A stretch of DNA of 64,000 bases from assembly GCA_033977065.1 (NCBI GenBank), contig JAXCHI010000004.1, forward strand, positions 64,001-128,000. The letters are read 5' to 3'. The translations under genes and the position numbers were made by a program. Of the stretch, positions 1,802 through 56,446 are shown piece after piece. The notes beneath the pieces are model-generated. The model did no database searches. It was given only the letters and a program-made list of their open reading frames with translations, and was not told the origin of the DNA. How positions within the stretch are numbered: the first letter of the stretch is position 1; every line of letters begins with the position of its first letter. This stretch comes from Candidatus Algichlamydia australiensis (GTDB taxonomy: Bacteria > Chlamydiota > Chlamydiia > Chlamydiales > JAJFMI01).

Positions 1802-1847
1802 GTCATTATTATAAACCTTTTGTTAAGATCAAAATGTAATTTTCAAT

Positions 1848-36570: not shown

Positions 36571-36571
36571 A

Positions 36572-38739: not shown

Positions 38740-41700
38740 ATGGGTGTGCGTATGTGGAAGCCAAAAATGCCAAAATTCACCGTCATCACAGGCTGGTGGT
38801 TAAGATTGCATCAAGAGAAAAAACCTACCCTTATGGGAGCCTGGAAGCGATTTATAAGGCAGATTCCTGCTGATTCGCGCGCTCTTGTAAAAAGTCATAA
38901 ACATTTCATTGTATTTGGAGGGCCTAATTCTGGGAAAACAGAGCTCATTCAAGGTTTAATTCAACAAAGTGAGGACCTTTTTCCTTTTGATACAATTTAT
39001 CATGAGGAGTCGATGATTCAGCTCTTCTTTGGTCCCAAACAAATTGTTCATGAAATTGAATTTCCGACTTTAGAAGATCGCTCGATTAAGATGCGGAAAC
39101 AGATCATCCGGTTTTGGAAGAAGCTATTTCAAAATCGCGATCCAATTGTTGTAATTGTGCAAAATTGGGCAGATGAAGAAACACAAGACACTCACGATTT
39201 CAGCCGGTTAGCGCAGTTAATTGGTGGAAAGCTATCTCTTCTTTCTGAAATTTGTAAAAAACCAATTAAGGTACGGATCAATTTAACTCATCTAGATAAA
39301 ATTGAGGGTTATCTTGAATTCGCACACTATTTAAAACAGCAAGATTTAACTTTTTCTATCCCTTTAACTTCTCGTTTTGCTGTCAATACATTAGAAGAAA
39401 AATTCCAAACTTTTGCTGACCAACACCTCCCTAACATGCTCACTTCTCTTTCCGATAAAGAATTCATTAAAATCCAACGGTTTTTTAGGGAAGTTCCAAA
39501 AGCATTTCCAAAGATCGAGGAGTTTTTGCGTGCTGTGATAACACGAGTGCGCTCAAAGGGATTTGTCGACTTAGAGATGCTTACCTTTAGCTCGAATAGC
39601 GAAGGAAGCACATCACTTGTTCCTTTTGATTGGAAAAAAGAAGCGGCTGCTGCTATTTTCTTTCGCTATCCAATGCTTAAACATCAAATTGCAGCAGTAT
39701 TTGTCGCATCTATAATTTGTGGATTTACATACAAGCTCTATCACAATGACAAAGAGCATTTGGCATTAGCAAACAGGGGGATTGATTTACTGCGCCGTTG
39801 CGAGGTGGCAAAATTTCAAAGAGAAGTGTTACCAAAATATGCAAAGCTGCTGCACTTTCAAAAACCTTCTCTTTACTCTTACGCGTTACCCAAGTTTTAT
39901 TTTAAACAAATTTGCAAAGCCGAAGAGGCGTTGGTTAAACAAATGTATAGGCATATTTTAGAGCCAAATTTTTGCCATATGCTTTTAAAAGAGGAAATAG
40001 AGTTTCAGTATATCTACTATCTTGGCTTGATGTATGCAGTAAAAAGAAATGATGTGGGTTCGTGCTTTATTGAGAATCTTGAAGCCTTTGCTCATCAGAT
40101 GGATCTCGACCCGAACTTTATAAAAACCTATATTTTCCTCTCAAAAACTCCAGGTTATCAGCTTGCAAAAGAGAAGACAGTAAAAATTAATCCAAATCTA
40201 TCACTTACAAGTCTACGTCCTTGGATTAAGTTTTTAAAGTACTTTGATCGGCTGAATAATGAACCTGTTTTTATGAGTCATAATTTTGAGACTTTGCATT
40301 TCGAAGCTGTAAATCTTTTAAATACTCTCGATTATCTACAAAACAATCCTGTAGTTGCATTTGCTTCTGTTTTAGAGGAGGATAAGAATTTTCAGAACGC
40401 ACCTCCTGAAGAGTTTGAGCATGTCAAAACAGTTAGTTGGATTTATCAAAATCGACACAAGCTAAAAGAGTTTTTACTTTTCATAAAAAACACCTCAATT
40501 GACCTTCCTGATGTGCGTAATCTTAATATTTCGCAGTTGTTTGCTCAAGTAGATGAGATTCAGAAAATTAATCAAATTCCCGAAACTCTATTTAACTTTA
40601 TTATTGAGGGAAATTCTTACTCATTTTTGTCTAAGAAATGGACAGAACTGACTGTTAACCACAGCGTACAACGCGCTCTACAAGAATTTATCGTTCATAA
40701 CACCAACTCTGGTGGACGTATCTTTTTTACAAATTGTGATCAGCCTCTACCTCCAGTAATGACAACTTTTATGGGGCAGTTCCCGCTTATTCGAGAGGAT
40801 AGAGCTGTACCTGCTAAGTACTCTCGCATTGCTTTTGAGAAAAATGTTCGTATGACTACAGAAGTTCTCCTAGAAAAAGTTGAAGAGCTACCTCTAGCTA
40901 AGGATGAGAAGATTCGCTTTAATCACTTTCTTCGCAATGAAGTAGCAAGCTATATCAAAAAATTTCAAGAGCACTACTTAAGTTTTTATCACGCTTGTCA
41001 GATCAACACAGAAGGTCTGCAAGAGATTAAAGGTACTTTGAGAGGGCTATTAAAAACTACAGCACCTTTTTACGATTTTTTACAGTGCTTTCATTATCAT
41101 AGCGGGGCTTTTTCTCAAGAGACTTCCTGCTTAGAGAGTTTTGAAGAGCTCAATCAATTTGCCTTTTTAGCAAATATTTTTGATGTTGAGAATAGAGAAG
41201 AGGCACTTGAACCCTACTTTAGAGTTGTTGCAGATATTCTTAGCGATCTAGAAAGAGACTCTCCTGAAAGCTTAGATAGTTTTCCCTACCTCTCTGCTAA
41301 CTTGACACCAGCAGCAAATATCGGCCTGCAAATTTTGCAAAATACGGAAGGGTCTTACCGTAATCAAGTAATTGCCTCTTTAGAAGAGATGGAGATTCCG
41401 AAATACTTCCATAAACCTTTTTTACAGCCTATTGAGGCCCTTTATAAGGTTGGGCTTATAGAGCTTAAAAAAATCATAGAAGACTTGTGGAGAGAAGAGC
41501 TTAGCCCTTCTGTAAATGCACTTTTTGAAAAATTTCCCTTTGCACTAGACTCTAACAAGATTGCTTCAATTGAAGAAGTTGCAGCAAAACTCAATCCCAA
41601 AAGTCAATTATGGCAAAGAGTACACGAACTTATTTCATCTGTTTCGAAGCAAGATGGAGATAGATGGGTATCAAAAGATCCCGAGAACATCAACCTTAAT

Positions 41701-42174
41701 GGGCAAATTTTTAGCTTGTTAAGTCGGTTTTCAAAAGCAACAAATGGTTTGTGGGATGAGAAGGGAAATCCTAGAGAGCTTACCTTTAAATTTCGCCCCA
41801 TACCTTTCTCATATACTGCCAATGTAAATCCGTTGCCAATTTGCTCATACATACGTGTTGGAGATAAAATTTTTCGGAATTTCAACCAGGAGTCTGCCAC
41901 AGAAACCCTCAGGTTCCCTTGGTGGGAAGAGTTGCCCGCCTGTGTGGGGGTAGAGCTACTTAATAAAAAAACGCGTGTGACATCTCACCGGACTAAAAAA
42001 GAAGCGCCTAAGCATTGGAGCTTTTTTCATGTGCTTAAGCAAGGAAGGCAAGAGAGCAAGAATCTTTGGACGTGGACTTTCCCTAGTGGTCAAGGAGAAG
42101 TGCGCGAAGCATCAATATTTTTTGAAACGTCACCGGATACGCTTTTCAGTTGGGATAGGGAGAGAATAGAATGA
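38740..42174 (+). CDS. tssM: T6SS membrane complex protein TssM/IcmF (PdpB-like), divergent
   Basis: 1144 aa; Walker A GGPNSGKT; LTHLDKIEGYLEF (IcmF T..D...G..EF); TM helix near residue 320; C-terminal KHWSFFHVL resembling the TssM W..F.L motif; T6SS context. Confidence 0.75.
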   Translation: MGVRMWKPKMPKFTVITGWWLRLHQEKKPTLMGAWKRFIRQIPADSRALVKSHKHFIVFGGPNSGKTELIQGLIQQSEDLFPFDTIYHEESMIQLFFGPKQIVHEIEFPTLEDRSIKMRKQIIRFWKKLFQNRDPIVVIVQNWADEETQDTHDFSRLAQLIGGKLSLLSEICKKPIKVRINLTHLDKIEGYLEFAHYLKQQDLTFSIPLTSRFAVNTLEEKFQTFADQHLPNMLTSLSDKEFIKIQRFFREVPKAFPKIEEFLRAVITRVRSKGFVDLEMLTFSSNSEGSTSLVPFDWKKEAAAAIFFRYPMLKHQIAAVFVASIICGFTYKLYHNDKEHLALANRGIDLLRRCEVAKFQREVLPKYAKLLHFQKPSLYSYALPKFYFKQICKAEEALVKQMYRHILEPNFCHMLLKEEIEFQYIYYLGLMYAVKRNDVGSCFIENLEAFAHQMDLDPNFIKTYIFLSKTPGYQLAKEKTVKINPNLSLTSLRPWIKFLKYFDRLNNEPVFMSHNFETLHFEAVNLLNTLDYLQNNPVVAFASVLEEDKNFQNAPPEEFEHVKTVSWIYQNRHKLKEFLLFIKNTSIDLPDVRNLNISQLFAQVDEIQKINQIPETLFNFIIEGNSYSFLSKKWTELTVNHSVQRALQEFIVHNTNSGGRIFFTNCDQPLPPVMTTFMGQFPLIREDRAVPAKYSRIAFEKNVRMTTEVLLEKVEELPLAKDEKIRFNHFLRNEVASYIKKFQEHYLSFYHACQINTEGLQEIKGTLRGLLKTTAPFYDFLQCFHYHSGAFSQETSCLESFEELNQFAFLANIFDVENREEALEPYFRVVADILSDLERDSPESLDSFPYLSANLTPAANIGLQILQNTEGSYRNQVIASLEEMEIPKYFHKPFLQPIEALYKVGLIELKKIIEDLWREELSPSVNALFEKFPFALDSNKIASIEEVAAKLNPKSQLWQRVHELISSVSKQDGDRWVSKDPENINLNGQIFSLLSRFSKATNGLWDEKGNPRELTFKFRPIPFSYTANVNPLPICSYIRVGDKIFRNFNQESATETLRFPWWEELPACVGVELLNKKTRVTSHRTKKEAPKHWSFFHVLKQGRQESKNLWTWTFPSGQGEVREASIFFETSPDTLFSWDRERIE

Positions 42175-42587
42175 AAAAAATTACTATTATCTTATTGATT
42201 CTACTTACTGCATGCAACTCGCGTGCAAACCATGTTGCAACTTTTCAGATTAAAACTGATGCAAATACGAATGAAGGAATCCCTTTTTATGTTGTTGCAA
42301 AATCGACAGAGTATATGGAATATGTCTGCGATGACTACCATAAAATTTACAACGAATTAGCATCTGCATCAGATGAGGATGAAAGGATCGTAACCTTTTT
42401 CATCATTCCAGGTGAAACAAAAAAAATTCGTGTCGAAGGCAAAGGAAATAAAGCTCCTGCAATTTATTTTCTTTTTACAAAACCGGGTGAGGCGTGGAGT
42501 TACTACGCTTCTGGAGGAGGTAAGCAATCAGTAAAACTTTTTTTAGGAAAGCACGAAATTGAAGCACAGAGTGCTTTTCGCTCATGA
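42171..42587 (+). CDS. Lipoprotein, TssJ-like
   Basis: Lipobox LTAC; DANTNEGIPFYVV resembles the TssJ N..G..P..V strand; ATGA-coupled to tssM. Confidence 0.6.
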   Translation: MKKITIILLILLTACNSRANHVATFQIKTDANTNEGIPFYVVAKSTEYMEYVCDDYHKIYNELASASDEDERIVTFFIIPGETKKIRVEGKGNKAPAIYFLFTKPGEAWSYYASGGGKQSVKLFLGKHEIEAQSAFRS

Positions 42588-44230
42588 AAAACGGTCTTGG
42601 TAGGTTTATTGAGCACCGTTTTTCTAAAAAAGAGAACTGGTTCCCTTCAGCTATTTTATCTTGGATTGAATCTAGTCAAAAAGAGCCTGAAAAATTTTAT
42701 GAAGAGCTTTTAGGTTACTGCCAAAAAAAGCTTGCACTTTCACTAGATAAGTATGATTTTTACCAGAGTGCTGTTCTCCAACATCTAGGTAAAAATGCTA
42801 CTGCTCTTTCCATAATGAATGCAAATGGTGTCTATGAGGAGTGGTCTTATGAGAAGCTGCATTTGGCAGTAAATTATCAAGTCAATCGTTGGAGAGCTCT
42901 TGGCCTTTCAACTGGTCAATGTGTAGCGATTGTTGCTCCAGTTTCGCCTCACTATTTTGTCGCTTATCTCACAGCATTGCGCTTAGGATTGAGTATTGCC
43001 TACTTTCCTTTGAATGATCCTTTTTTGTCTAAAGCAGTGATCTTGCAAAAGCTCATGGAGTTAAAGCCTTTTGCTGTAATTACTTCTGAGGAGGATTTTC
43101 CAAAAGATCCCTCTTATGAAACCATTGAGTTACTTGAGCTGCCAGAATCAAAAAACAATTACACTCCAACTTCTACAAATTATTCACCAGAAACCACGAC
43201 ACAAATTTTTATCGGCACCTACTCTAAAACGTTCCTTACACTTACCCCGCTCTCAGCAAAAAATCTCTATTTTGCTGTTCTACGGGATGCCGTAGCTCTT
43301 TTAGGGCTAGTTCCAGGATCAACTCTTGCCTATCCACTGGGCTCTTCTCTCTATCATCCTAATATCTTGAACACACTTTTCCTTGGTGCTCGGTTTTTGC
43401 ACGTTGATTCGGGATTTCTTAAGAAAAATCCCCAATGCATGGCAAAAGAAAAAGTTCATGTTTTTGGTTTATCTAAGGCAGCAATGACTCTTTGGGAAGA
43501 GACGCCTGGTGTTCCCTCAAGCAGTCTTAAACTGATATATAAATCCCCCTTTGATCAGAGGTGCTTTACTTTTAAAGCATTTGCGGTAGTCAACAAGATA
43601 GAAAAAGTTTCAAGCGCAAATCTACTGATTGATAATAGCGCAGGAGGGGTTACTCTTTTTTCTAAACTCTCTCTCGATTTTCCCGAACTTTTTATGCTTC
43701 CAAACATAGGTCTTTCTTGGGAACTTTCTGATCTGAAAAAAAAGGAAAAAAAATCTTTGAGGAATTTTGGCAGCTTTTCTGTAAGTGGGATGATGACACC
43801 TCTTCTTCTTGTAAAAAACGATCAAGGGTATATCCTCAGCGACTCTCAAGTGCCCTCAAGGGATGGAAAACCCTTTCCTGTTGAGAAAATCGAGAGTGCT
43901 ATCTCTTCTATTCCTGTAATAGAGAGTGCCTCTCTTTTTCATGCTGTAAAGGGAGGAACAATTGCAAATCGGGTTTATGTTTTGCTTGTTTTTACCTACG
44001 AGAGAGGGCCTTCTCTTGAAGAAGCTATACATAATACGATTCTTGATCAAGTAGGTGAAGCTTACCTACCTGATTATATCGAGTATTACCCACTTCATCC
44101 CAAAACTCAAGCTGGGCAAGTTGACAAAAATTGGTGTAAAGAGCAGTATGCTACCGGATTACTTGATAAAAAAAGTAATATTGAGATCTACAAAAAATTA
44201 TCTCAGCTACAAACTCTTTTAGGGAGGTAA
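42584..44230 (+). CDS. AMP-binding (acyl-CoA synthetase-like) fold protein, degenerate active site
   Basis: WSYEKL..V, GQCVAIV...Y.VAYL.ALRLG, EKIESAI..IP.I, IEYYPLHPKT..GQVD; the TSGST P-loop is not present; ATGA-coupled to the tssJ-like gene. Confidence 0.65.
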   Translation: MKNGLGRFIEHRFSKKENWFPSAILSWIESSQKEPEKFYEELLGYCQKKLALSLDKYDFYQSAVLQHLGKNATALSIMNANGVYEEWSYEKLHLAVNYQVNRWRALGLSTGQCVAIVAPVSPHYFVAYLTALRLGLSIAYFPLNDPFLSKAVILQKLMELKPFAVITSEEDFPKDPSYETIELLELPESKNNYTPTSTNYSPETTTQIFIGTYSKTFLTLTPLSAKNLYFAVLRDAVALLGLVPGSTLAYPLGSSLYHPNILNTLFLGARFLHVDSGFLKKNPQCMAKEKVHVFGLSKAAMTLWEETPGVPSSSLKLIYKSPFDQRCFTFKAFAVVNKIEKVSSANLLIDNSAGGVTLFSKLSLDFPELFMLPNIGLSWELSDLKKKEKKSLRNFGSFSVSGMMTPLLLVKNDQGYILSDSQVPSRDGKPFPVEKIESAISSIPVIESASLFHAVKGGTIANRVYVLLVFTYERGPSLEEAIHNTILDQVGEAYLPDYIEYYPLHPKTQAGQVDKNWCKEQYATGLLDKKSNIEIYKKLSQLQTLLGR

Positions 44231-44233
44231 TGT

Positions 44234-44563
44234 ATGGGAGAGATGGTAGGAGATGGTGCAAAATTTACTTGCACGCTCTGCGATTCAGAAATTGAACTTG
44301 AAGTTTCCGAATCATCTACAACAGGAAGTGGTAAAAAAATCGCTACCGAGTCAAACCACAAATTCATACCCGCACCCTTATGCAAAATAGTTCCCCAGTC
44401 ACCACCTCCATGCGCCCCTGCTGTTGCTATTACTGACCCAGGACAATCGCCAGTTAGCATTGATGGGAGCCAGGCTTTAGGAAAAGAGTGTCAAGGAGTA
44501 TGTATGCGCGGGGGTTCGCTAGCTCTTTCGGACCCGGCTCAGGAAGTTTTTCAGCATAATTGA
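44234..44563 (+). CDS. PAAR-like spike-tip protein (DUF4280/IglG-like)
   Basis: GAKFTC, CK....PPPCAP, VSIDG..AL......C.RGG.L...DPAQ, the Cys-based DUF4280 pattern. Confidence 0.8.
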   Translation: MGEMVGDGAKFTCTLCDSEIELEVSESSTTGSGKKIATESNHKFIPAPLCKIVPQSPPPCAPAVAITDPGQSPVSIDGSQALGKECQGVCMRGGSLALSDPAQEVFQHN

Positions 44564-44601: not shown

Positions 44602-47600
44602 ATGGCAGTAGATGGAAGCGGAGGGATGAATCTGGGAGGAAGTTTTCCTAGTTCCGATAGCTCAAAGGCAACATTTAAGCAGCTTACAAGCGGGGTTTTT
44701 AAGGCTCAGGTTGCGGATTGGAGTGATAGATTAAGTTGGCATGAGAAGCAGAAAGAAAATAGAAATCTGTTAAAAGCAGCGATTACTGTTGATACAGCTC
44801 TATTTTCAATCGTTTTTGCTCACGCATGTACACTTTTTAAAAAAGATGATGCAAGATCCGGGAAGATCACTGCTTTAGTCTATTTAGCTGCTCGGGTCTC
44901 ACTTTTTTACTCAGCGGCCCACCTTCTTTTTGTGCAATTAGGCCTTAGAATCTTAGAGGGTAAAAAACCAGAAACTAAGAAAGATTTAAGTTCACAAGAA
45001 ACACTTCTAGAAATTGCTGGGTGGCTGTTTTCTGGAGTACATTTTTATAATCACTATCGCACCCCAGTTATCGATTCAAAAATCAAAATTCTCAAAGATG
45101 CCACAAATGAAGTTGAGCAACTATCCTTTCGCGTTGATACGGTCTATCATCGATTTGCAATAGTCATGAAACAGCTTGCGGAAAAAATAGGGGGTAGTAA
45201 GGAGCTTGCTACGATTAGTAGAGAAATTAAAAAATTAAAGCTCCCTGAAAAAGAAGAAAAGATTTTGGAATCTAATATTGATGCAATTGTCAATTGTGAT
45301 GCAGAAGGAAAGAGTGCTGAACTGTTCGCGAGATTTTCTGCTGAATTTAGTGAAGAAAGGGCAGACGTAGGTGATGTTGTTCTCAGGTCTGCGGATATAG
45401 AAGAAGTAAAAGCAAACCTATTGACAATTGCTAAGAAAAATAAAACAGGTTTTCAAAATTCCTTAGAGAGTGCCGTTAAAGTAGGTGATAGAGAGTTTAT
45501 CTCTGATTTCTTTGCATTAGGAGATGAGTACATCGCGCTTATAGATCTGCGCAAACTTTTGATTTTAGCGATTGAAAGTAGCCAGAAAGAAGTTGTAGGA
45601 GTTCTCGTTGAAAGAAATATTAAAGAGCTTGCTAAATTGAGTGGAACTGCATATACAAAGCTCGCACACGAGCATAATGAGGGAGATATTTTAAAGACAC
45701 TTGTATCAGGTGGATTTGAAAGAGAGGAAAGTTTGCTTTCTGAGGTTGTAAGAGATGGAACGGTCGAAGATGTAAGCAACCTTCTTGATGCTCATGAAAA
45801 TAAGGAAGCAACTCAAACTCCCCAAGAACTTCAGCAAGCGCTTATAAGTGCAATTAAGAGTGGTAAAAAGGAAGCTGTTGAAAATCTCTTAAAAGTAGGA
45901 GTCTCATGTACTGAAAAATGTTTTGAAGAAGAAAAAACACCGCTAATGTTTGCGATTGATGAGGGTCTAACAGAAATCGCATCAATATTAATTCCTGAGT
46001 ATTCAAAAGAAGATCGTAATAAAGTAGATAAAAGTGTAGAAACAGCTCTTTTTAAAGCAGTGAAAAAGGGAGAGGAACAAACAGTTAAAGATCTTTTATT
46101 AGATAAAGATAAAAAAGCTTCATTATGCATAAAATGTGGAGAAAATGAAGAGACACCTCTTATATTCGCGATTCGAAAGGGTAATCTCTCTACCGCAGAA
46201 ATATTAATTGAAAATAGTTCTGAGGAAGATCTTCGCACGACTGATAAAGCTAATCAAACTGCACTTTACTATGCAGAAAAGGGTAAATATAAAACCATAG
46301 TTGAAAAAATTGTAGGTAAATGGGGAGATCCAGTTAAGGCTGATTATGAAAACCAGAAAACAACTTTGACAAAAGCAATTGTTGAAAAAAAATTTCTTGA
46401 GGCAGAAGCTCTTATTGGGAAATTCGATCATGAACAAGTTGACATAGGCAATCCAGGAGAGAGAGCTTTAGATTACTTGTTGGCATGTGGAGATAAAGCA
46501 GAAGCATGCATGCAAAAATTCTATGAGGAATATCATGGGGACTTATCAACAGATGACATGGTACTGATTCTTTTTTGGTTTATGAAAAGAGATAGTGATG
46601 TCTCTCGTAAGTTTGCCGCTGAGACTATTTTCCTAGAAGCTAATAAGAAAGAGAATTTTTTAAATGTAGTTCAATATTTGCTTGAGGATGCTACGAAAGG
46701 AATTTCTGAAGAAGAAACAGTAGAATACTTAGATTGGGTAGCTCGAAGAGGAAACACAGATGTTATCAGAACTTGGTTAAATATGTTAGGAATCTCTGCA
46801 ATTCCCCAAAAGAAAAAACTTCTTAATTGGCTTAATTTTGCAATTCAACAAGGGAATCTCGATTTAACTAAATACTATTTAGAAAAAATTAGAACTGATG
46901 AAAACCAGATACTTGAAAATAGAGATTTAACAGATCTTGGTGAAGAAAATATCAAAAACATTAGAAGGTCTCGTAGAAATTGGGAGAAGAAAAAAGGAGA
47001 GAATCAATGGCTCTTTGTTGAAGCTCATTTAAATGCTATTGAGAAGGGAGAGCAGGAATTATTGGATATTGTTCGAGAGTATAGTGGCATTCAAGAGAGT
47101 AAAGAGGGCAACAAGTATGTTGAAGAGTTGGTATGGCTCATTAAAAGATTTTCTGAAGGAGCAGAACAGGCTCAACCGATGATTACACAAATTCTAAACG
47201 AACATCCTAGTGCAATGAATTGTCTTTGCAATGATGGGTTGACAGCTCTCATGCATGCAAACACTCTGTTAAAAGATGGTAGTCTTTCAAATTTTTTAGA
47301 GTATGATGGATTAGATTTATACACGCTCGACTTTGAAGGAATTCCACTTTTAGGCCATGCGGTCCGTGGAGGTAAAGAGAAGAATATAGAAGTTGTTTTT
47401 TCTTATTGCCAATCTGATTTGGAAAGATCTTTGGCTATTGCAAAAGAGACAGAAGGAGTAGATTCCAATATTGTTAATACTTTTTTAAATTTGGTAAAAG
47501 AGAAAACGCAGGGGGGTGAAGGGATGTCGGTTGATTCACCGTTAGTTCATGCGGCTGGTGCTGGTAATTGGGGTAAGGTAAAAGAGCTTCTTAAGAGGCA

Positions 47601-48627
47601 TCAAGATTCTTTAAGGCTAGCGCTTATACTAGCAACAACTTCAACGAGGATTCCAAAACATATTCTCGATTTAATTGAAGAGGAGCTTATACAAGCGGAC
47701 TTTGATGTAAGAGATGATTACAGGACTTTCTTGCAGTGGGCTGTTGAAGCAGGCTCTTTTAGGTGTGTCACAAGCATATTAAGTAGGCTAAAAGTCGATG
47801 ACCCTGCCGTTCATGGGGTTTTGAAAACAAGCTGGGAATCCGGAGATCGAGCAATTTTTCAGTGCTGTCTCTTCCATTCAAACTCTCAAAAGTTGTACCA
47901 AGATTATTTAATGAAAGGTGCAGAAAGAGGAGATCAGGAGCTAGTTAGGCAAATTGTAGGCAGTCGCGATCCTAAAGTAAAAGATATATCAAAAAAAATT
48001 GCTTTGTTTTGTGCTTGGGAAGAAGGGCATAAAGCCATTGCCAAATATTTAAGTACCTCTCTTGGAGGGGATTTTGGAAACAATTCTAAGAGGAGGACTT
48101 TTGTTGAGTATGCTGCATTGTACCAGCTCTTTGGTATGATAGATATGACGATGAGATCACTTACAAATAAAGGAAAAAGAAGAGATTGTGTTGTGTACGC
48201 TGCCCGTTATGGAAATGAACAACTTTTAAAAGAGTTAGAAAAACTATGGAGTTTTTCAAAGGAGTCACAAACTCTTTCTAAAGGCTTGGAAACAGCTATT
48301 TTGAATCAACATTTGCCTATAGTCGAATATTTTTTAGAGTTAGGAGCAGTTCCTGAAGATAAGTGGATTGAGTATGCGCTCCTACTACAGGATTTAGACA
48401 TGGCAGTTATGCTTGCGGATAAGAGCAGTTATGAAAATCTTGAAGCTTACTTAGAAGTTAAAAAAACTCAAACTGAAAAAGCAACTAGTAAAATTAAAAA
48501 AGATTTTGATGGTTTAATTATGGAGGAAGAAAAAGTGAAAATCGAAAGAAAAGGAACTTTAAGGCTTGCATTGATGGATTTCTTTAAAGATGATCTTGGA
48601 AAAAAAGCGAAGAAGAATAAGGGCTAA
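44602..48627 (+). CDS. Large ankyrin-repeat protein (1341 aa), candidate effector
   Basis: Many ankyrin repeats (KTPLMFAIDEG, ETALFKAVKKG, ETPLIFAIRKGN, SPLVHAAGAGN); hydrophobic helices near the N-terminus; RBS aggagg. Confidence 0.85.
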   Translation: MAVDGSGGMNLGGSFPSSDSSKATFKQLTSGVFKAQVADWSDRLSWHEKQKENRNLLKAAITVDTALFSIVFAHACTLFKKDDARSGKITALVYLAARVSLFYSAAHLLFVQLGLRILEGKKPETKKDLSSQETLLEIAGWLFSGVHFYNHYRTPVIDSKIKILKDATNEVEQLSFRVDTVYHRFAIVMKQLAEKIGGSKELATISREIKKLKLPEKEEKILESNIDAIVNCDAEGKSAELFARFSAEFSEERADVGDVVLRSADIEEVKANLLTIAKKNKTGFQNSLESAVKVGDREFISDFFALGDEYIALIDLRKLLILAIESSQKEVVGVLVERNIKELAKLSGTAYTKLAHEHNEGDILKTLVSGGFEREESLLSEVVRDGTVEDVSNLLDAHENKEATQTPQELQQALISAIKSGKKEAVENLLKVGVSCTEKCFEEEKTPLMFAIDEGLTEIASILIPEYSKEDRNKVDKSVETALFKAVKKGEEQTVKDLLLDKDKKASLCIKCGENEETPLIFAIRKGNLSTAEILIENSSEEDLRTTDKANQTALYYAEKGKYKTIVEKIVGKWGDPVKADYENQKTTLTKAIVEKKFLEAEALIGKFDHEQVDIGNPGERALDYLLACGDKAEACMQKFYEEYHGDLSTDDMVLILFWFMKRDSDVSRKFAAETIFLEANKKENFLNVVQYLLEDATKGISEEETVEYLDWVARRGNTDVIRTWLNMLGISAIPQKKKLLNWLNFAIQQGNLDLTKYYLEKIRTDENQILENRDLTDLGEENIKNIRRSRRNWEKKKGENQWLFVEAHLNAIEKGEQELLDIVREYSGIQESKEGNKYVEELVWLIKRFSEGAEQAQPMITQILNEHPSAMNCLCNDGLTALMHANTLLKDGSLSNFLEYDGLDLYTLDFEGIPLLGHAVRGGKEKNIEVVFSYCQSDLERSLAIAKETEGVDSNIVNTFLNLVKEKTQGGEGMSVDSPLVHAAGAGNWGKVKELLKRHQDSLRLALILATTSTRIPKHILDLIEEELIQADFDVRDDYRTFLQWAVEAGSFRCVTSILSRLKVDDPAVHGVLKTSWESGDRAIFQCCLFHSNSQKLYQDYLMKGAERGDQELVRQIVGSRDPKVKDISKKIALFCAWEEGHKAIAKYLSTSLGGDFGNNSKRRTFVEYAALYQLFGMIDMTMRSLTNKGKRRDCVVYAARYGNEQLLKELEKLWSFSKESQTLSKGLETAILNQHLPIVEYFLELGAVPEDKWIEYALLLQDLDMAVMLADKSSYENLEAYLEVKKTQTEKATSKIKKDFDGLIMEEEKVKIERKGTLRLALMDFFKDDLGKKAKKNKG

Positions 48628-49020: not shown

Positions 49021-49635
49021 CTAGTTTAGAGTTGATTGAGCAAATAAGATGAGTAAAAAGAGGAATGAGAGTGCAGCGGCGGCAGCATAGTAGTGTTTTG
49101 GTTTGAATTTTTGAGGTTTTTGAGGAGATAGCTCTTCACTCTTCTTTAGTTCGATTTTCGCGTTTCCAATACGCTCTTGCAAAAGATCTAGATATTTATC
49201 GATTTGTAGTTGCGTATCTTTATATTGTCCTTTAAACCCTCGCTTAATAATAAAGTAATAGACTTCATAAACAATTAGGGGTGTTTGGCGGTCCTCCAAA
49301 ATGCTATCGCACTTTTTAAAAAAGACTTCGCCTGCTTTATGCGTACCAAGGGTGTGTTGTAAAGGAGGCCAACTAATATTATTTTTTATCTGCCTATGAG
49401 CAAAGCTTTGCATCTGTTCATTTATATAGGAGGTAAGAGCAAATTCAATCAGAAGACTTTGGGATGGATTAAGGTTTTTATGAAGAAAGTTTTTCAAACT
49501 TTCAAGAATTTTGGTTGCTTTGGTTTTTAGCATTTCCACCTGTTCTTGCTGAACCTCTTGGTGGTCGATCAACTCTCGCTCGGTTTCTATCTCCTCAAGA
49601 CAAGAAGAAATTTTTGGCCAGTATTGTGAGCTCAT
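49021..49635 (-). CDS. tssL: T6SS TssL/DotU
   Basis: FAL..YINE, WPPLQ......AGEVFF, YEVYYF....GFKGQY, single C-terminal TM helix. Confidence 0.88.
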   Translation of the reverse strand: MSSQYWPKISSCLEEIETERELIDHQEVQQEQVEMLKTKATKILESLKNFLHKNLNPSQSLLIEFALTSYINEQMQSFAHRQIKNNISWPPLQHTLGTHKAGEVFFKKCDSILEDRQTPLIVYEVYYFIIKRGFKGQYKDTQLQIDKYLDLLQERIGNAKIELKKSEELSPQKPQKFKPKHYYAAAAALSFLFLLILFAQSTLN

Positions 49636-51223
49636 TCTGTTTCCCTCCTTTTATGATTAATGGACGCTTGGCTCCCGGAATGTGCACTTTCACCTCTATT
49701 TCAAAATAGGAGAGCCATGCGTGCAAAAACTTATGTAGATACACAAAAAATAGTACGACAAGCTCCCATTTTTGTCCGCCCCAATTTTTAAGAAAAAACT
49801 CATACTCCATTAAAGAGCCGGTGTTGTTATCTTTGATTTTTTGGTTGGTTTGCATTTTCACAATGAGGTCGGGGATGATATCAAAAAGACTATTATCAAG
49901 ATTTTTTGCTGCATTTAAGATGAAAAGAAGCTCATTAAGCGTAAATGTGTTTTGATTCTTGAGGGAGAAAATGCGCAGTAGGTAGTTAGGGTCATCTTGT
50001 TGTGTATTTTCATAAGGGTATATTTTGCTTAGGAGGCGCGTTTTTTTATTTGTAAGTTGCGAGATAGAGGCTTGTATGGTCTGCTCTTCATTTACTGTAT
50101 CGGCAAACCATGGTTGTGTCCAAAGGGCTTTTACAGTAAGGGTTTCAGGCTTTGTAAAGGCTTTTGGCATGTTGAGAAGAAGGTGCTTAGAGTGGTAGTC
50201 GATTTCGTAGGTCTCTTCTTTGCGCCCTAAAATACCGGGTTTTAAAGTTTTCGTTCCTGTAGGAAGAATTTTTGCTACGTGGAGAACGGTGTGAAGCTGG
50301 TATTTAAGACTTGGTTCTGGGTGAAGCAGTGGGTATCCCTCTTTTGTTCCATCGCATATAACTGGATCCGAGTACTCAGTTTTAAGATTGATTATGGGTA
50401 CGGCAAAAGGAACAAATGTCTCGTCTGTAAGTTTAATGCTAGAAGGCCAGCTAGAAGAGAGGCGAATTGTTATCGTAATCTCTTTCCACCCTTTTTCAAT
50501 CTCAGGCAGGTCAAGGGTCATATAAAGCTCTTGCTGCGGGAAGTGAAAAAAGGTACGAACCTGCTCAACTGGGTGAGTAAGGATTTTGCGATGACCTCGA
50601 TATCCAAATGTTGCTTTGGTAGTTTGAGGTTCTTCACAATCATAAGTAATGGTGATGCTCTCCATTGATCGCTGCAGTGCAAAAAAAATACGCAGAGAAG
50701 AGAAGAAGCTAGAGAGGTGGTTAATATAGAAAGGGATTTCGCTGATTCTCTTATTTGTCTTTTCACTTAGTCGATAAGTCATGCTGAAAAGATAGGTGTG
50801 ATCTTGTTGCTTTTCAAATTCAGATTGGGCTATCGACATTGGCAGGAGAGAGAGCGGTTCAAGGGTTTGGAAAGTTGCTTTAGGATTATTGTCTGTGCAA
50901 AGGTAAAATTCGGTTCCTGCTGGAAGATCTATAATTTCCGGGTTTTTCAAGGAGTGGGCAACTTGTAGCATGGAGACGGAAGGGAGGGGATTGAGTAAAA
51001 AGGGAAAATATTGACGAAAAAGGCATTGATGCATCTGTGTCATTTTATCTACGGCTTGTAAACGAGATTGCGCTCCATAAAATGCAAGAGCTTCAATCAT
51101 GCGCTTTACGTTTGGGTCGTCAATTTCAAGAGGGGTATCTTTATATAGTTCAAGATGCGTAGCACGAAATCTTTCAATCTCTCTTAGGTTTTGCAGAAAA
51201 GCTTGATAGAGGCTATCACTCAT
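49595..51223 (-). CDS. tssF: T6SS baseplate TssF
   Basis: DDPNVKRMIEALAF..A..R, FP..LNPLPS..MLQ, AVPIINL, LWTQP. Confidence 0.88.
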   Translation of the reverse strand: MSDSLYQAFLQNLREIERFRATHLELYKDTPLEIDDPNVKRMIEALAFYGAQSRLQAVDKMTQMHQCLFRQYFPFLLNPLPSVSMLQVAHSLKNPEIIDLPAGTEFYLCTDNNPKATFQTLEPLSLLPMSIAQSEFEKQQDHTYLFSMTYRLSEKTNKRISEIPFYINHLSSFFSSLRIFFALQRSMESITITYDCEEPQTTKATFGYRGHRKILTHPVEQVRTFFHFPQQELYMTLDLPEIEKGWKEITITIRLSSSWPSSIKLTDETFVPFAVPIINLKTEYSDPVICDGTKEGYPLLHPEPSLKYQLHTVLHVAKILPTGTKTLKPGILGRKEETYEIDYHSKHLLLNMPKAFTKPETLTVKALWTQPWFADTVNEEQTIQASISQLTNKKTRLLSKIYPYENTQQDDPNYLLRIFSLKNQNTFTLNELLFILNAAKNLDNSLFDIIPDLIVKMQTNQKIKDNNTGSLMEYEFFLKNWGGQKWELVVLFFVYLHKFLHAWLSYFEIEVKVHIPGAKRPLIIKGGKQNELTILAKNFFLS

Positions 51224-51227
51224 AAAG

Positions 51228-52166
51228 TTACCAGTTGACGAATGCGTCGCTATCGATGCTTAAAAGGTTTTTAAGAAGTTTCCACTGGAGGTTCTCTTTA
51301 CTTTCCCAATGGTGTGCGATGACATCAGCGTGCTTTGCGTGTAGGGATAAAAATGTGGAAAAGAGCTCTGGAAAGTAGTGGATAGGATCGAAGTTTTCAA
51401 TTTCACTTGTAATTACTTGTGCGCAAACAGCGGCTTTGTTGTAGGATTCATTTTCAATAAGGTTTTCAAAAATTTTTATTAAGCTAATTAATTTTTCAAA
51501 GGGTTTAGATGGAGTGGGGTTAGGAGATTGCTTTTCTACCTCATTTGGGAGCAGGGGCTCTTCTTGTATGCAATCTTCTTCTTCGACAAGTTCTTCTTGC
51601 TTCTCTTCTTGACTAGGCTCTTTTTTCATCTCTTTGATTTTCGCGCTCAAGCTATAAATACTTTTGATTGCTTGAGATTTTGGCCATCTGCTTTGAAAAA
51701 ATAGGACAAATGTCTTTATTTCATCGATCAATGCTTCATTTTCACTTGGAGAAATTGCGTGGCACTTCTCCCAAAGAAGACGGTTTTGGGCATCTTTTTG
51801 CATGACCATTTTGCAATATTCAAGTTTTTTTGCAATTTGTGAAAAGAGCCAATTAGTACTGGTTTGTGTATGGACTTCAAGAAGTGTTTTTGGTTCAAGA
51901 GTTTTCCACTTTTTCTTTATAAGATTTTGTAGGAAAGGGAGGGTTTGAAGAAGGCTTACAACTCCATTTTTTAAAAACTGGATGTAAAGGTAATGAGCAA
52001 TAATACGGATATCTGGTCGGTTTTCATCAAGAAGTGTTTCTACTTTTTCTTGCGCTCGAATAGCCTTCTCACCCTCCATGAATTTCACAATTTCATCAAA
52101 GCTTTGGGAGGAAACGGGCTTTTTTTTAGAGGCTTTTTCTAACAGGATTTTTTCTAGGAGGTTCAT
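51228..52166 (-). CDS. TssA-like (ImpA N-terminal-like) T6SS protein
   Basis: PDIRIIAHYLY...G....L..L..L....WKTLEP resembles ImpA_N (DLR...L...G...L..L...W..L.P); acidic/Pro linker; short C-terminal domain. Confidence 0.55.
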   Translation of the reverse strand: MNLLEKILLEKASKKKPVSSQSFDEIVKFMEGEKAIRAQEKVETLLDENRPDIRIIAHYLYIQFLKNGVVSLLQTLPFLQNLIKKKWKTLEPKTLLEVHTQTSTNWLFSQIAKKLEYCKMVMQKDAQNRLLWEKCHAISPSENEALIDEIKTFVLFFQSRWPKSQAIKSIYSLSAKIKEMKKEPSQEEKQEELVEEEDCIQEEPLLPNEVEKQSPNPTPSKPFEKLISLIKIFENLIENESYNKAAVCAQVITSEIENFDPIHYFPELFSTFLSLHAKHADVIAHHWESKENLQWKLLKNLLSIDSDAFVNW

Positions 52167-52169
52167 TGG

Positions 52170-54146
52170 CTAAGCTCCATTTTTTACCGTACTTGCGTTA
52201 TTATGAATCATCTTGCTTGATATTACAGCTTTTGATTGAAGATCAGCAGTGTAAGTGTTTCCTTGTATTTCAATGCTCTCATCTGCTTGAATAGAAAATT
52301 TTTTACATTTGAAAGTGAAGGAGTCTGGTTTTTGAGTGCAGGTGCTCTTTATGCCTTTTTGCTCGCATGTATGTGTCATCTCTTTTCCATCAAAAAGAGT
52401 CTCTTGTTTCATTCCTGTCTCTTTATTCTCAAGTGAGTAATGCACTTTGTCGTTTGTATGTTCAATTGTCGTTGTTTTTTTACCCGTAAGCTCAATTGTC
52501 GACTGAATACTCTCTTTTTCAATTTTAACTGTTTGTGTTTGCGTCATCGAACTTGATTGGATAAGAGTAAACACAGAGTTGCTTCCACCTTCAAATTCAT
52601 GCTTTAAAATGACATACTCATACGCTCCATTTGATGAGAGTACAAGTTGGTTACCTTGCGTGCCACTAGGTAATCGTGCGTGGGGTTGCCAGTCGAGTAC
52701 CCTATGAATTTTTGCAGTGCGGAAGTAGATATTTAAAAGTACTTGCTGATCCTTGCAGAGGGGGTAAAAGTGTTGACCTGTCATAAAATCGGGAAAGAAA
52801 GGGACAACGAGCTTTTCATCCATGGCAAGAGGTACACTTACTTGATAGTGGCCTTGTGGTGTTCCATCAGATGTATTGATATTGAAAGTGGTCTGCTCTT
52901 TTGCTCCTATTTCGCAAAAGACTGTTCCTTGTATCGAAAAGGGATAGTTTGGTGGATTAAAAGGGGGGCGGTCTATATGCTTTTCCTCTTCGTCTTCTGC
53001 ACATATTTCTATTTGCAATTCGTAGGGTTCTTTTTTGTGGAAAATATTATTTGCTTCTGTCTTTCGTCTTGCTCGAATAGAGGCAGTACGTATACGGAAG
53101 GTTTTTTCTGAAAAGGCAAAATTATTGCTCCAATGCCCAGTAGAGAATTTATGACTCGCGAAATTGATAAATGAGTTGGGGAGGAGTTTGTCAAAGTGAA
53201 ATTGATTTACTAAATCGTTTACTGAAAAATAAAGAAGGTTTTTTTCAGGCTTCATTACAGAGCTCACATACCCGTGCCGGTGTTCTGGGAAAATCTGGTC
53301 GATTTCTTTGTCGATAAAGGTTTTACAAGCTTGGGCAAAAGCGTCGCTTACCTCCTTTACTACTTCGTTTATCGTGTCGGGTTGGTGAAGAAGTTTTTGT
53401 TCTGTTGCGCGTGGGGGAGTTGGACAGAGGCAGCGAGGCGGTGTAATCGCTTCTTGGTAAATGGAGTAGGGGGTCTCTTCAAGCGCGGGCTTTTCGCTAT
53501 AAAAGGTGTAGCTATTGTTGGCAAAGTCATAGAGGAGTAGACCTCCTTCTTGGTGAAGATACCAGTGGAGAAATGAATAAAATTGTGGACGCTTTTCTTC
53601 AGGGATTTCAGCTTTTTCTTCTAAAGAGAATGCGAGTATGGGATAGGATGTCTCTAATGCATCAAATTTATAGTTTAAGTTTATGCTAGGAGTTTTATGC
53701 TCCTCAAAGACGTTTTTCATTGTTTTATTTACATAGATACTTTGAGGGAAGTGCTCACTCCAGATTGCTTGTGCGTTGTCTTTGAATGTAATGCTCCAAA
53801 GGTAGATACAAGTTGCTGAGTTTTCATAACTGTTAGTGACGCATTGGAAACTCTGTTTGGTAACGGTTCCTGTTAGCAAAAGAAGGGGAGAGGAGTCGTC
53901 TTCACTATTGTAAAACTTGAGGGTTGCAGTGATAACTTTTGTGCTAAGAAGTAGGGAATCAAGATCTTGATTGTTCATGCTTGTAATTCCAATTTCCGCT
54001 TGATAGCCGTAGGACTGTAGATCAAGGCTAAATTCGTGAATGTCGTTTGGATAGATCGTTTGGTCACTACCATCTGCCTTAAGTTGAAGAGTGAATATTA
54101 AGTCTTTGCTTAATTTAGCTGTTTTTTGTGGGGAAGCTACCATCAT
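52170..54146 (-). CDS. Divergent VgrG-like spike protein
   Basis: 658 aa; SFLHWYLHQEGGLLLY (VgrG F..RL...EG..Y); GQHFYPLCKDQQVLL (OB-fold G..F.P..G.EV.V); C-terminal T/S/K-rich beta-strand repeats; follows tssE. Confidence 0.7.
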   Translation of the reverse strand: MMVASPQKTAKLSKDLIFTLQLKADGSDQTIYPNDIHEFSLDLQSYGYQAEIGITSMNNQDLDSLLLSTKVITATLKFYNSEDDSSPLLLLTGTVTKQSFQCVTNSYENSATCIYLWSITFKDNAQAIWSEHFPQSIYVNKTMKNVFEEHKTPSINLNYKFDALETSYPILAFSLEEKAEIPEEKRPQFYSFLHWYLHQEGGLLLYDFANNSYTFYSEKPALEETPYSIYQEAITPPRCLCPTPPRATEQKLLHQPDTINEVVKEVSDAFAQACKTFIDKEIDQIFPEHRHGYVSSVMKPEKNLLYFSVNDLVNQFHFDKLLPNSFINFASHKFSTGHWSNNFAFSEKTFRIRTASIRARRKTEANNIFHKKEPYELQIEICAEDEEEKHIDRPPFNPPNYPFSIQGTVFCEIGAKEQTTFNINTSDGTPQGHYQVSVPLAMDEKLVVPFFPDFMTGQHFYPLCKDQQVLLNIYFRTAKIHRVLDWQPHARLPSGTQGNQLVLSSNGAYEYVILKHEFEGGSNSVFTLIQSSSMTQTQTVKIEKESIQSTIELTGKKTTTIEHTNDKVHYSLENKETGMKQETLFDGKEMTHTCEQKGIKSTCTQKPDSFTFKCKKFSIQADESIEIQGNTYTADLQSKAVISSKMIHNNASTVKNGA

Positions 54147-54511
54147 GGTTGAACCTCCAGTTCTAAAAGTTCTTTTTGATTTTGAAAAGAGAGGAGAAGA
54201 GATCGCTTGGTTTCATGGATCTGACACTTCAAAAGAATTGAAATTTGAAAAATATTGCTACTTTCTACTGGTTCTACTGAATCAATAATCAGGCGAGGTT
54301 CATATTTTTTTAAGACAGCTGCAACTTGAAGGGCGATTTTTTTAACAAAATTCGAAGACTTACTTCCATAAACAATATCTCCTAGGCCATAGTCTCTTTG
54401 AACAGCTTCAAAGAGGCGTTTTGTACTAAGTAAGCAGTGGATATGGTCCAAGATCTCCTGCTCAAAATTTAGCTGGTTTTTTTCTGATCGAAACTTATTG
54501 AAAAAGCTCAT
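54143..54511 (-). CDS. tssE: T6SS baseplate TssE (gp25-like)
   Basis: ILDHI..LLSTKR, DYGL.D, LKKYEPRL. Confidence 0.88.
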   Translation of the reverse strand: MSFFNKFRSEKNQLNFEQEILDHIHCLLSTKRLFEAVQRDYGLGDIVYGSKSSNFVKKIALQVAAVLKKYEPRLIIDSVEPVESSNIFQISILLKCQIHETKRSLLLSFQNQKELLELEVQP

Positions 54512-55758
54512 TTTATCGCCTCACTTTTCCAATAAAGACAGGGGTGTAGAGCATCGCTACTACTATGACAAGCAAAAGCAATGCGCCTCTCTTTGATTGC
54601 AGTATTCCACTCCACTCCCTTTTTTACAGAGAAAATGTAGGCAGATTTAGAAAAATTATTATTAAAAGGGGCGGTTTCAAGGCGGAGAAGTTCAATTCCA
54701 CTTAGAGCAAACTGACAAATAATAGGTAGGCGTGAATAAGCAGCAAGTTTAATACCTTCAATGTCTGACTTAATAAGGGTGTTTTTTGGTGGTTGTAGTA
54801 TGAGATAGATTTCTGTAGCGTCTTTTAGAGTGGAAGGTAATTCCTCTGAAAGGAAGCAATCTTCCTTCTTTTCGAATTCGATCTGGTGCATTTTTTCTGT
54901 TGAGGTGGTATTGTAATTACAGATATTGTTAATCAATTTTGAAAATATGCAGTCTAATTTGTTGTGATCGTAGAGAGTGATATCTGGGGGTGTACGATCT
55001 GCATGGATTAGGGAGAGTGTGTCAAGAAGTTGGCAGAGATGTTCATAAAAAAAATAGGGATGAAAAAGAGTTTTCTCTTCAACATTTTGGAGATAGCGCT
55101 CTACTTTTGTAACTTCTTTTAGGCAGATGCGCGTATCAATTGTACGTGTATCATATTTAAATTCCTCTTTTAGACCTTCAAGATAAGATTTAACTTGATC
55201 TCTGTAAGATTTGAAAAAAGGAGTTTCTACTACAGAAAGTGATGGCGGAATGTACTCTCCTAATTTCCAAAACCCTTCAGCATTACTTTCTAGCTCTGCA
55301 ATTTTAAGAGAGCTTTTTAAAGAGAGGTCAGAATCTGTTGATAATTTGAGTTGATACATGGAGAAAAGAATTTTTTCACTACCTTCTTCTGCTTCTATTT
55401 CGTCCTCATGTTCAGATTGGGATTTTAATAGATAGAGGTAGAGGGATACTGTTTTGTTCCGCACTTTTGGAAGAGAGTAGTGGGGAACTGTGGCGTTACT
55501 GGGAACATTAATAATTTCTCCATTTGGAAAGATAGCATGCATCTTCTCAATATTAATTATTCCTCTTTGGAGTTTTGCATTATCCCATTTTAGACTCTCA
55601 ATTCCATAACAGGGAAGTCCTAGCATGGCAGTATAGCGGCGCGTATGAGCAAGCAAAGCACGCTCTTGCGCAATCAGATGGGCAGGCAGGAGTGCCTGCC
55701 CAGTTTTCCAAGAGACATGCTTTAACTGCTCCCCTTTAAGCAGCAGGTGGTGTTCCAT
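54508..55758 (-). CDS. tssK: T6SS baseplate TssK (IglD-like)
   Basis: VSWKTGQALLPAHL.AQE, YIPPSL, HPYFFYE.L, YDHN.L...F..L, FALSGIEL. Confidence 0.85.
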   Translation of the reverse strand: MEHHLLLKGEQLKHVSWKTGQALLPAHLIAQERALLAHTRRYTAMLGLPCYGIESLKWDNAKLQRGIINIEKMHAIFPNGEIINVPSNATVPHYSLPKVRNKTVSLYLYLLKSQSEHEDEIEAEEGSEKILFSMYQLKLSTDSDLSLKSSLKIAELESNAEGFWKLGEYIPPSLSVVETPFFKSYRDQVKSYLEGLKEEFKYDTRTIDTRICLKEVTKVERYLQNVEEKTLFHPYFFYEHLCQLLDTLSLIHADRTPPDITLYDHNKLDCIFSKLINNICNYNTTSTEKMHQIEFEKKEDCFLSEELPSTLKDATEIYLILQPPKNTLIKSDIEGIKLAAYSRLPIICQFALSGIELLRLETAPFNNNFSKSAYIFSVKKGVEWNTAIKERRIAFACHSSSDALHPCLYWKSEAIK

Positions 55759-56377
55759 AAGTGAACATTTTTTTGCTGTCTTTATTGTAGTAGTAGGTAA
55801 TGCCTTGCTCTTTTCCCTCTTTCCAATCTTCTCCCTGAATGGCGAGTGAAACGATATAACCTGAAACAGAGTACTTTTTTTGTGGTCGAACTTTCTTCAG
55901 CGGCTTACCGCCCCAGTCGGCTTGTGGAACGATTCTTCCTCTAAACTCACCAAAACCTAAGTCGTGTGAAAAGTGCTTTTCATAGGCTCCTTTTCCACTT
56001 CCTTCTCCACTACGATACCTCCAGGATATGTAAGTGCCGCTGATAACGTTTTCATCTTCATCCTCAACTTTTGCCTCAACTTTTGAGAACATGCTATCAC
56101 TCATAAATAGTTGTATGCGTTTAGGATCTTCAGAGTCTTTGCTCCATTGAAAGGACAATATTGGACCAATCGTAGGAACTTTTACACTTGTGCTATCAGG
56201 TAAAAAAAGTGGGATCATATCCCCTTTTTTTTCTGTAAAATCCGTTTCATCAATTGTCATTGTTAGCATATGAGCAACGGATGCGGTTGATCCAGATCCA
56301 AAGCCCATTGCTGTATCCATTGAATAAAGCTCATCAATTGGAACTCTATTGCTATTACTTTCAGTTGCTGTACTCAT
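55736..56377 (-). CDS. Putative T6SS inner-tube protein (non-canonical Hcp, IglC position)
   Basis: 213 aa; between tssC and tssK; strong RBS (ggaggt); no canonical Hcp motif; assignment is positional. Confidence 0.55.
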   Translation of the reverse strand: MSTATESNSNRVPIDELYSMDTAMGFGSGSTASVAHMLTMTIDETDFTEKKGDMIPLFLPDSTSVKVPTIGPILSFQWSKDSEDPKRIQLFMSDSMFSKVEAKVEDEDENVISGTYISWRYRSGEGSGKGAYEKHFSHDLGFGEFRGRIVPQADWGGKPLKKVRPQKKYSVSGYIVSLAIQGEDWKEGKEQGITYYYNKDSKKMFTYGTPPAA

Positions 56378-56446
56378 CTCAAACCTCCGTTATTGAGATT
56401 GATTTCTTACTTTCCCTCCAATTTTTAGAGGGGACTATTTGTAGCA

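Follow-up and report, generated by a model that had tools for sequence, protein, structure and literature searches.

A likely IglC-type inner-tube subunit in a Francisella-like type VI secretion cluster of an environmental chlamydia

Introduction

Which gene supplies the inner tube of a type VI secretion system (T6SS) when its genome holds no recognizable tube gene? The question is raised by a 64,000-nucleotide stretch of Candidatus Algichlamydia australiensis (GenBank assembly GCA_033977065.1, contig JAXCHI010000004.1, positions 64,001 to 128,000 of the forward strand; hereafter 'the window'). Its T6SS cluster includes an open reading frame (ORF) with an ATG start and no existing annotation, 213 amino acids long (55736..56377, minus strand), which lies between the genes for the large sheath subunit TssC and the baseplate subunit TssK. 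A first-pass annotation made from the sequence letters had described this ORF as an orphan gene in the slot of Francisella iglC and as the candidate for a novel, non-canonical tube family. We conclude with considerable confidence that it encodes the inner-tube subunit (a functional TssD/Hcp with an IglC-type structure) of a Francisella-like T6SS in an environmental chlamydia. The predicted structure of its product, here called the tube protein, points to a very divergent tube of the IglC type, that is, an unannotated member of the IglC/Hcp kind with no new fold.

Sequence searches and the tssC-tssK slot family

A six-frame search of the whole genome (1.8 Mb in seven contigs, 93.4 per cent complete) with the Pfam models for Hcp (T6SS_HCP, PF05638) and IglC (PF11550) gave no match at E ≤ 1, which extends to the entire genome the earlier remark that the cluster holds no Hcp-like motif. 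When the genome is searched with the profile of the protein family described below, the tube gene is the sole match. With no Pfam Hcp or IglC match and a single family copy, there is thus no alternative tube candidate.

Direct searches with the tube protein returned little. NCBIfam gave only a TnpB match at 0.088, which is noise, and the PDB sequences gave only chance matches (E 0.31 and 0.82). A word-indexed homolog search retrieved only the protein itself among 99 candidates, and sixty related genomes contained no match. An exhaustive phmmer search of 1.84 billion representative sequences found two full-length, distant homologs: P0005 (210 aa, E 1.2e-10, 27 per cent identity) and P0007 (209 aa, E 5.6e-5). 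Both sit on contigs of about 1 kb, too short to give gene context, and scans of metagenome contigs with P0005 and with a profile of all three sequences recovered no locus. Another match, the 764-aa repeat protein P0006, was dropped as spurious because it aligned to residues 96-129 only, in six stretches.

The gene slot itself was more informative. A TssC search matched 8 of 301 genomes from the same order (including the genome studied here), and a TssC scan of genome contigs identified metagenome-assembled genomes (MAGs) of Simkaniaceae and Parachlamydia as well as two Myxococcota MAGs, a result that puts the window's organism with the environmental chlamydiae. Between tssC and tssK, five of the seven other loci found in the order carry an ORF of 189-196 aa. 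The other two (L007 and L009, from genomes G267 and G064) have an ORF of ~492 aa that follows tssC in place of the tube gene. The five shorter slot proteins form a related set, most pairs matching in BLASTP at 1e-8 to 4e-48; their match to the tube protein is marginal (BLASTP E 0.07), yet colinear. When a profile of the tube protein, P0005, and P0007 was aligned with eight chlamydial slot proteins using hhalign, the result was a probability of 98.2 per cent (E 5.9e-14) over 178 columns, which establishes homology with the slot family.

Built into an 11-sequence profile, this family grows to at least 271 proteins at E ≤ 0.01, from Chlamydiota and Myxococcota. The 120 family proteins among the matches listed are 187-194 aa long, have no precomputed Pfam domain, and are named 'hypothetical protein' or not at all; their organism labels include Sorangium, Polyangium, Nannocystaceae, and Myxococcota. 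The tube gene scores 4.0e-30 and 1.2e-49 against the family profile, of which the tube protein is itself a row. Against PDB sequences the profile found only antibody-type noise (E ≥ 0.11). The word 'orphan' in the first-pass annotation therefore holds for direct searches, which reach two distant homologs, and fails at the profile level, where the family is large.

Linkage of the family to T6SS loci

Members of the family are found where T6SS sheath genes are found. Among 400 genomes sampled from the phylum, the family profile matched in fifteen and the VipB sheath family in thirteen, and all thirteen sheath-positive genomes were also positive for the tube family. In ten of the thirteen, the tube gene lies immediately 3' of tssC. 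In the other three it is at most 15 kb away, adjoining tssB on the other strand (G064) or at a distance of 3.6 kb (G410) or 14.5 kb (G267). The family is present, but the sheath is not matched, in two genomes (G178 and G259). Of 201 genomes sampled around one MAG from its Myxococcota class, 25 have the family, often in multiple copies (2-5 matches).

We examined thirty-four loci (L014-L047, including the cluster in the window). A family member adjoins T6SS genes in twenty-nine of these, and at twenty-five it is flanked within 1.5 kb by tssC on the upstream side and tssK on the downstream side. The copy at L026 adjoins tssB/tssC, those at L020 and L023 adjoin tssF, and at L014 tssC and the family gene flank the origin of a single 2.13-Mb contig, if that contig is circular. 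The flanks of the remaining five (L027-L030 and L047) contain no T6SS gene. The first-pass annotation had named homologs found mostly outside T6SS loci as the outcome that would speak against a tube; the counts point the other way.

Copies outside T6SS loci bear on a different role, in which the protein would be a specialized secreted carrier, chaperone, or effector-type Hcp with the Hcp/IglC fold and something else would form the main tube. L027 and L028 come from two genomes without a VipB match, L029 and L030 from T6SS-positive genomes, each as a second copy, and the frequent two to five matches per Myxococcota genome could be read in the same way. Hcps that bind effectors are also known, according to the available portion of a review (PMC5924787). 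Such a carrier would leave the tube itself to be supplied by another gene, whereas the chlamydial genome, with a single family copy and no match to the Pfam models for Hcp and IglC, offers no other tube candidate, and its copy occupies the conserved position between tssC and tssK. We regard a carrier role as very unlikely, and an inner-tube subunit as the better description of the protein.

Some of the additional copies have unusual forms. L029 encodes a 318-aa ORF (1405-2361, minus strand) that combines a tube-like part with a weak N-terminal F-box-like match (E 0.007, below the cut-off). The 209-aa copy at L028 (1381-2010, plus strand) has, by eye, a hydrophobic, signal-peptide-like N-terminus and comes from a genome without a sheath match. 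Second copies in Myxococcota (G494, G503, G539, G576, G597, G631, and G637) lie in frames of ~241 aa whose profile matches fall into separate segments (positions 2-50 and either 54-124 or 54-187), a pattern suggestive of a longer variant carrying an insertion.

Predicted structure of the tube protein

We modelled the tube protein with AlphaFold2, using an alignment of 128 rows with the tube protein first and 117 rows taken from the 120 listed family matches. The model has a pLDDT (predicted local distance difference test) of 79.9 and a predicted template modelling score (pTM) of 0.79, and folds as a beta-rich domain whose one long helix spans residues 94-106. A single-sequence model from the ESM Atlas was set aside, as its pLDDT was 0.29 and its structural neighbours were meaningless.

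The best Foldseek match in the PDB is Francisella IglC (2qwu_A, E 5.8e-4, probability 1.00, TM-scores 0.59 and 0.60), followed by Hcp proteins with probabilities of 0.69-0.97. Realigning the Foldseek candidates with VIA-align gave IglC a Z score of 14.2 with a root-mean-square deviation (rmsd) of 3.2 Å over 178 of 207 residues, pairing model residues 9-211 with residues 13-209 of the 2qwu chain at 10 per cent identity. Ranks 2-13 were Hcps (Z 7.3-9.3), and AFP, pyocin, and phage tubes had Z scores of 4-6.5. A VIA-align comparison with all 48,161 representative chains again placed IglC first, at Z 13.8 and about five Z units above the next match. Ranks 2-12 of this exhaustive comparison were all Hcps or Hcp fusion constructs (Z 7.3-8.9), and tube proteins of phages, pyocins, and extracellular contractile injection systems (eCISs) came after them (Z 4.6-6.9). 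The first-pass annotation had named a predicted fold unrelated to tail-tube proteins as an outcome that would speak against its proposal; the fold predicted here is a tail-tube fold, closest to IglC.

The two kinds of alignment start at different places. Hcp alignments begin at about model residue 32 and the IglC alignment at residue 9, from which we infer that the tube protein carries an N-terminal extension of ~32 residues. IglC, the Francisella tube, is structurally similar to Hcp without resembling it in sequence and carries a 32-residue N-terminal extension that is peculiar to it, as described in the excerpted text of the review cited above (PMC5924787), whose Table 1 gives the roles of IglAB, IglC, and IglD. 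The same excerpts, dating from 2018, describe the assembled structure of an IglC-type tube as still not solved.

Lower in the structural ranking are baseplate and initiator components that have the tube fold, including those of the AFP baseplate (6rbk and 6rao, Z 6.5) and the PVC baseplate (Z 6.0). These matches would suit an accessory with a tube fold, namely an initiator or baseplate-proximal ring comparable to T4 gp48/gp54 or Afp7, in place of a repeating subunit. IglC, at Z ~14, and Hcp, at Z 7-9, clearly outrank them, the cluster has a PdpA/VgrG-like spike, and there is no separate gene for a repeating tube subunit. In T6SSs, the initiator role is filled by the N-terminal domains of the spike itself. 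We consider an accessory role extremely improbable and a repeating inner-tube subunit of the IglC type the reading that fits the structural ranking.

Several observations weigh against this assignment. Pfam returned nothing for the tube protein at E ≤ 10, so that no sequence likeness to Hcp or IglC is detected, and neither family is among the 25 listed of the 35 families that 128 members of the tube family matched. Alone, the tube protein aligns to the eight chlamydial slot proteins with an hhalign probability of 15 per cent (E 0.0018). It is also an outlier within its family: of the forty-five alignment columns that are at least 85 per cent conserved in the other 127 rows, it keeps thirteen (P60, W78, D84, Q191, and G208 among them), and other chlamydial members keep 15-26 of the same columns. 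In the model, residues 1-7 and 137-142 have pLDDT values below 50, and because Myxococcota sequences dominate the alignment, its local details may have been carried over from the family.

Taken with the T6SS-linked homologs, the IglC-best fold supports the proposal of a candidate non-canonical tube in the IglC slot. The claim of a novel tube family survives in part. It is valid only at the sequence level, as no Pfam or NCBIfam model covers the family; by structure the tube is of the IglC type.

Divergence of the tube gene

The tube protein is 12-24 per cent identical to other family members. Across the chlamydial loci, identity to the cluster's copy is 61-67 per cent for TssC, 37-43 per cent for TssK, 27-40 per cent for the spike, and 12-20 per cent for the tube, which is the least conserved core part. 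One explanation for this divergence is decay: if the T6SS island were being lost, relaxed selection could have left the tube gene as a relic, and the contrast between the tube and TssC or TssK would follow. The patchy distribution of the system (13 of 400 genomes in the phylum) would also agree with loss, as would its absence from the genomes of the same genus and the same family that were searched (76 and 90 per cent complete). A relic would not be expected to keep a full-length, intact frame with a strong Shine-Dalgarno sequence and an overlap with tssK, however, and the neighbouring T6SS genes are all intact. The structural model is confident and compact. P0005 and P0007, the two nearest homologs, are full length and have the same insertions, forming with the tube protein a subfamily of ~210 aa. 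Since the other chlamydial orthologs are only 22-35 per cent identical to one another, fast evolution characterizes the lineage as a whole, not this copy alone. There is thus little chance that the gene is a relic, and a functional, fast-evolving inner-tube subunit remains our preferred account.

The signals around the ORF agree with those reported at first pass. The tube gene follows tssC directly, at a spacing of 69 nt, and its Shine-Dalgarno sequence (GGAGG, 56384..56388, minus strand) is 6 nt from the ATG. The tssK start codon, an ATG at 55758, lies inside the last codons of the tube gene, giving a 23-nt overlap that is suggestive of translational coupling. The short hairpin described upstream of the ORF is also present in the tssC/tube intergenic region (56414..56432, minus strand); its stem has 8 bp, one of them a G-U pair, and its loop is AAA. 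Over the whole 81-nt stretch, the folding energy is -18.3 kcal/mol (z = -2.28), and the signal is modest because 4 of 200 shuffled sequences were equally stable. We rejected the hairpin as a terminator: it has no T-run after the stem and was not flagged by a terminator scan.

Gene content of the cluster

The genes of the minus strand run in the order tssB, tssC, tube gene, tssK, tssE, a 658-aa spike gene, an IglI-family gene, tssF, and tssL/dotU. The sheath subunits are encoded by tssB (57964..58500; PF05591 1.2e-42, TIGR03358 9e-45) and tssC (56447..57967; PF05943 1.2e-100, PF18945 1.4e-31, TIGR03355 3.5e-140, above cut-off). Downstream of the tube gene are tssK (54508..55758; PF05936 9.9e-40, TIGR03353 2.3e-83) and the gp25-like tssE (54143..54511; PF04965 3.7e-10, TIGR03357 7.8e-9, below cut-off). 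Beyond the spike gene come the IglI-family, TssA-like gene (51228..52166; NF041244 IglI_fam 4e-59, 200.9 bits against a cut-off of 100, with a weak ImpA_N match), the tssF/IglH-type baseplate gene (49595..51223; PF05947 5.1e-28, NF041246 T6SS_IglH_TssF 90 bits against a cut-off of 75), and tssL/dotU (49021..49635; PF09850 1.8e-14).

On the plus strand, the upstream genes encode, in order, a TssM-like protein, an IglE-like lipoprotein, a 548-aa protein, a DUF4280 protein, and a 1341-aa ankyrin-repeat protein. The first is a weak TssM/IcmF-like membrane-complex candidate (38740..42174; IcmF_helical 6.6e-4, below cut-off) with syntenic tblastn homologs at Myxococcota T6SS loci. It is followed by the IglE-like lipoprotein, an analogue of TssJ (42171..42587; PF22361 IglE_N 1.1e-12, NF041245 4e-16 with 59 bits against a cut-off of 75), and by the 548-aa protein (42584-44230), which has a weak N-terminal match to AMP-binding enzymes. 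The DUF4280 protein (44234..44563; PF14107 6.9e-8) is a putative PAAR-like tip. The ankyrin-repeat protein directly after it (44602-48627) is a candidate eukaryote-directed effector. At the other end of the cluster, a weak IglJ-like baseplate protein (61730..62566, plus strand; NF041243 2e-4, below cut-off) has tblastn homologs at other T6SS loci of the same type (L050 and L067).

The 658-aa protein (52170..54146, minus strand) has no match in Pfam or NCBIfam and is recognized as PdpA/VgrG-like by fold only. Its AlphaFold2 model, built on sixteen syntenic orthologs from related loci, has a pLDDT of 74.4. The top three Foldseek matches are chains of Francisella PdpA-VgrG complexes (6u9g_A, 6u9e_A, and 6u9f_A, E 1.9e-18 to 1.0e-17), with eCIS spikes and VgrGs next. 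Chain A of these complexes has 583-717 modelled residues, and Francisella VgrG is far smaller, so we infer from its size that chain A is PdpA. By its modelled fold, the 658-aa protein is probably the spike of the cluster.

The cluster thus looks like a complete T6SS in which canonical and Francisella-type parts are mixed. Among the latter, the IglI-family and IglH/TssF proteins score above their cut-offs and the IglE- and IglJ-like proteins below them, while the IglC and PdpA matches come from fold comparison only. TssB, TssC, and TssK satisfy the equivalog models of canonical T6SSs, which makes the cluster appear intermediate between T6SSi and T6SSii.

If the parts work as their relatives do, subunits of the tube protein would form rings that stack and polymerize on the PdpA/VgrG-like spike, as in Hcp and IglC tubes. 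The spike would be held in a baseplate of TssE, TssF, and TssK together with the IglJ-like protein, and the TssB/TssC sheath would wrap the tube. Contraction of the sheath would then expel tube and spike through an envelope complex of IglE-, DotU-, and TssM-like proteins. Assembly into rings and a tube, like secretion, is proposed by analogy. The target is probably the membrane or cytosol of a eukaryotic host, because the ankyrin-repeat gene follows the gene for the PAAR-like protein.

Other genes lie beside or near the cluster. Divergent from tssB is a gene for a 461-aa protein (58606-59991, plus strand) whose C-terminal half is hydrophobic and which matches the BTH_I2691 T6SS effector family weakly (E 0.008); homologs with 26-29 per cent identity adjoin the T6SS at two other chlamydial loci (L048 and L051). 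An 858-aa ClpB-type AAA+ protein is encoded about 6 kb from the cluster (30475-33051, minus strand), and no ClpV was seen within the cluster. In Francisella, sheath disassembly is reported to proceed via ClpB, according to the available portions of two papers (PMC7182274, PMC5481754).

Origin and significance

The guanine-cytosine (GC) content of the window is 0.41-0.47 in the blocks covering 1-36 kb and falls to 0.36-0.39 over 36-56 kb, a region that spans most of the cluster. An AbiEi antitoxin/AbiEii nucleotidyltransferase toxin pair (35755-37408, plus strand) lies at the left edge of this low-GC region. The GC drop and the distribution across 13 of 400 genomes in the phylum suggest that the cluster is a horizontally acquired island.

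In the available portions of two papers (PMC4793230, PMC12955703), the T6SSii, which uses an IglC tube and a PdpA spike, is presented as specific to Francisella or associated with it, and the excerpted text of another adds Dongshaea as a carrier (PMC13098142). The T6SS of a coral paper (PMC11809670) belongs to Endozoicomonas. Among the freely accessible main texts that we searched, none reported the slot family or, for Chlamydiota or Myxococcota, an IglC-like tube or a T6SS like that of Francisella.

The results supply the missing tube for the T6SS of 13 of 400 sampled Chlamydiota genomes and also locate the family in Myxococcota, in 25 of 201 sampled genomes from one class. Injection machinery of the Francisella type is thus probably not confined to Francisella: its type of tube, spike, and accessory parts seems also to occur in chlamydiae and myxobacteria, which gives the cluster a wider interest. 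T6SS finders that need hidden Markov models of Hcp or IglC would score such systems as incomplete. Culturable myxobacteria may offer non-pathogenic models for IglC-type tubes. In obligate intracellular chlamydiae, a contractile injection system beside an ankyrin-repeat protein points to a route of host interaction besides type III secretion.

One hypothesis, which we hold tentatively and think rather less likely to be right than wrong, is that the chlamydial and myxobacterial clusters represent an unrecognized sister or ancestral lineage of the Francisella T6SSii that bridges T6SSi and T6SSii. The tube would then be the fastest-evolving core part because it is delivered into, and selected by, a eukaryotic host. 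If this were true, the 'Francisella-only' machinery would be old, horizontally mobile, and used by both intracellular bacteria and predators.

Comparison with known systems

Among known systems, the closest is the T6SSii tube IglC (2qwu; PF11550), the best structural match in both comparisons (Z 14.2 and 13.8, rmsd 3.2-3.3 Å, 178/207 residues). The likeness covers the fold, including the N-terminal extension, with a predicted model on one side of the comparison, and extends to length (213 aa against 207 modelled residues). The gene position is shared as well, preceded by the gene for the large sheath subunit and followed by that for TssK or IglD; in Francisella, iglC lies between iglB and iglD. 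The neighbours are likewise IglE-, IglI-, IglH-, and IglJ-like, with a PdpA-like spike. The differences are that PF11550 detects neither the tube protein nor the listed family matches, that the hosts are Chlamydiota and Myxococcota and not Francisella, and that the sheath and TssK of the cluster score as canonical T6SSi equivalogs above their cut-offs.

Hcp/TssD (PF05638) has the same beta-barrel-plus-helix tube fold, with Z scores of 7.3-9.3 over 114-141 residues for structures such as Pseudomonas aeruginosa Hcp3 (3he1), enteroaggregative Escherichia coli Hcp1 (4hkh), and the Myxococcus xanthus tube (5urw). Its role would be the same. In contrast to IglC, Hcp scores about five Z units lower, and the tube protein differs from it in having no sequence match, ~50 more residues, and the N-terminal extension.

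The tubes of contractile tails (T4 gp19, the pyocin tube 5w5e, and the Afp and PVC tubes) have the tail-tube fold in common with the tube protein, at a much weaker Z of 4-6.9. They belong to phages or extracellular particles, whereas the tube gene described here stands in a T6SS cluster with genes for a membrane complex.

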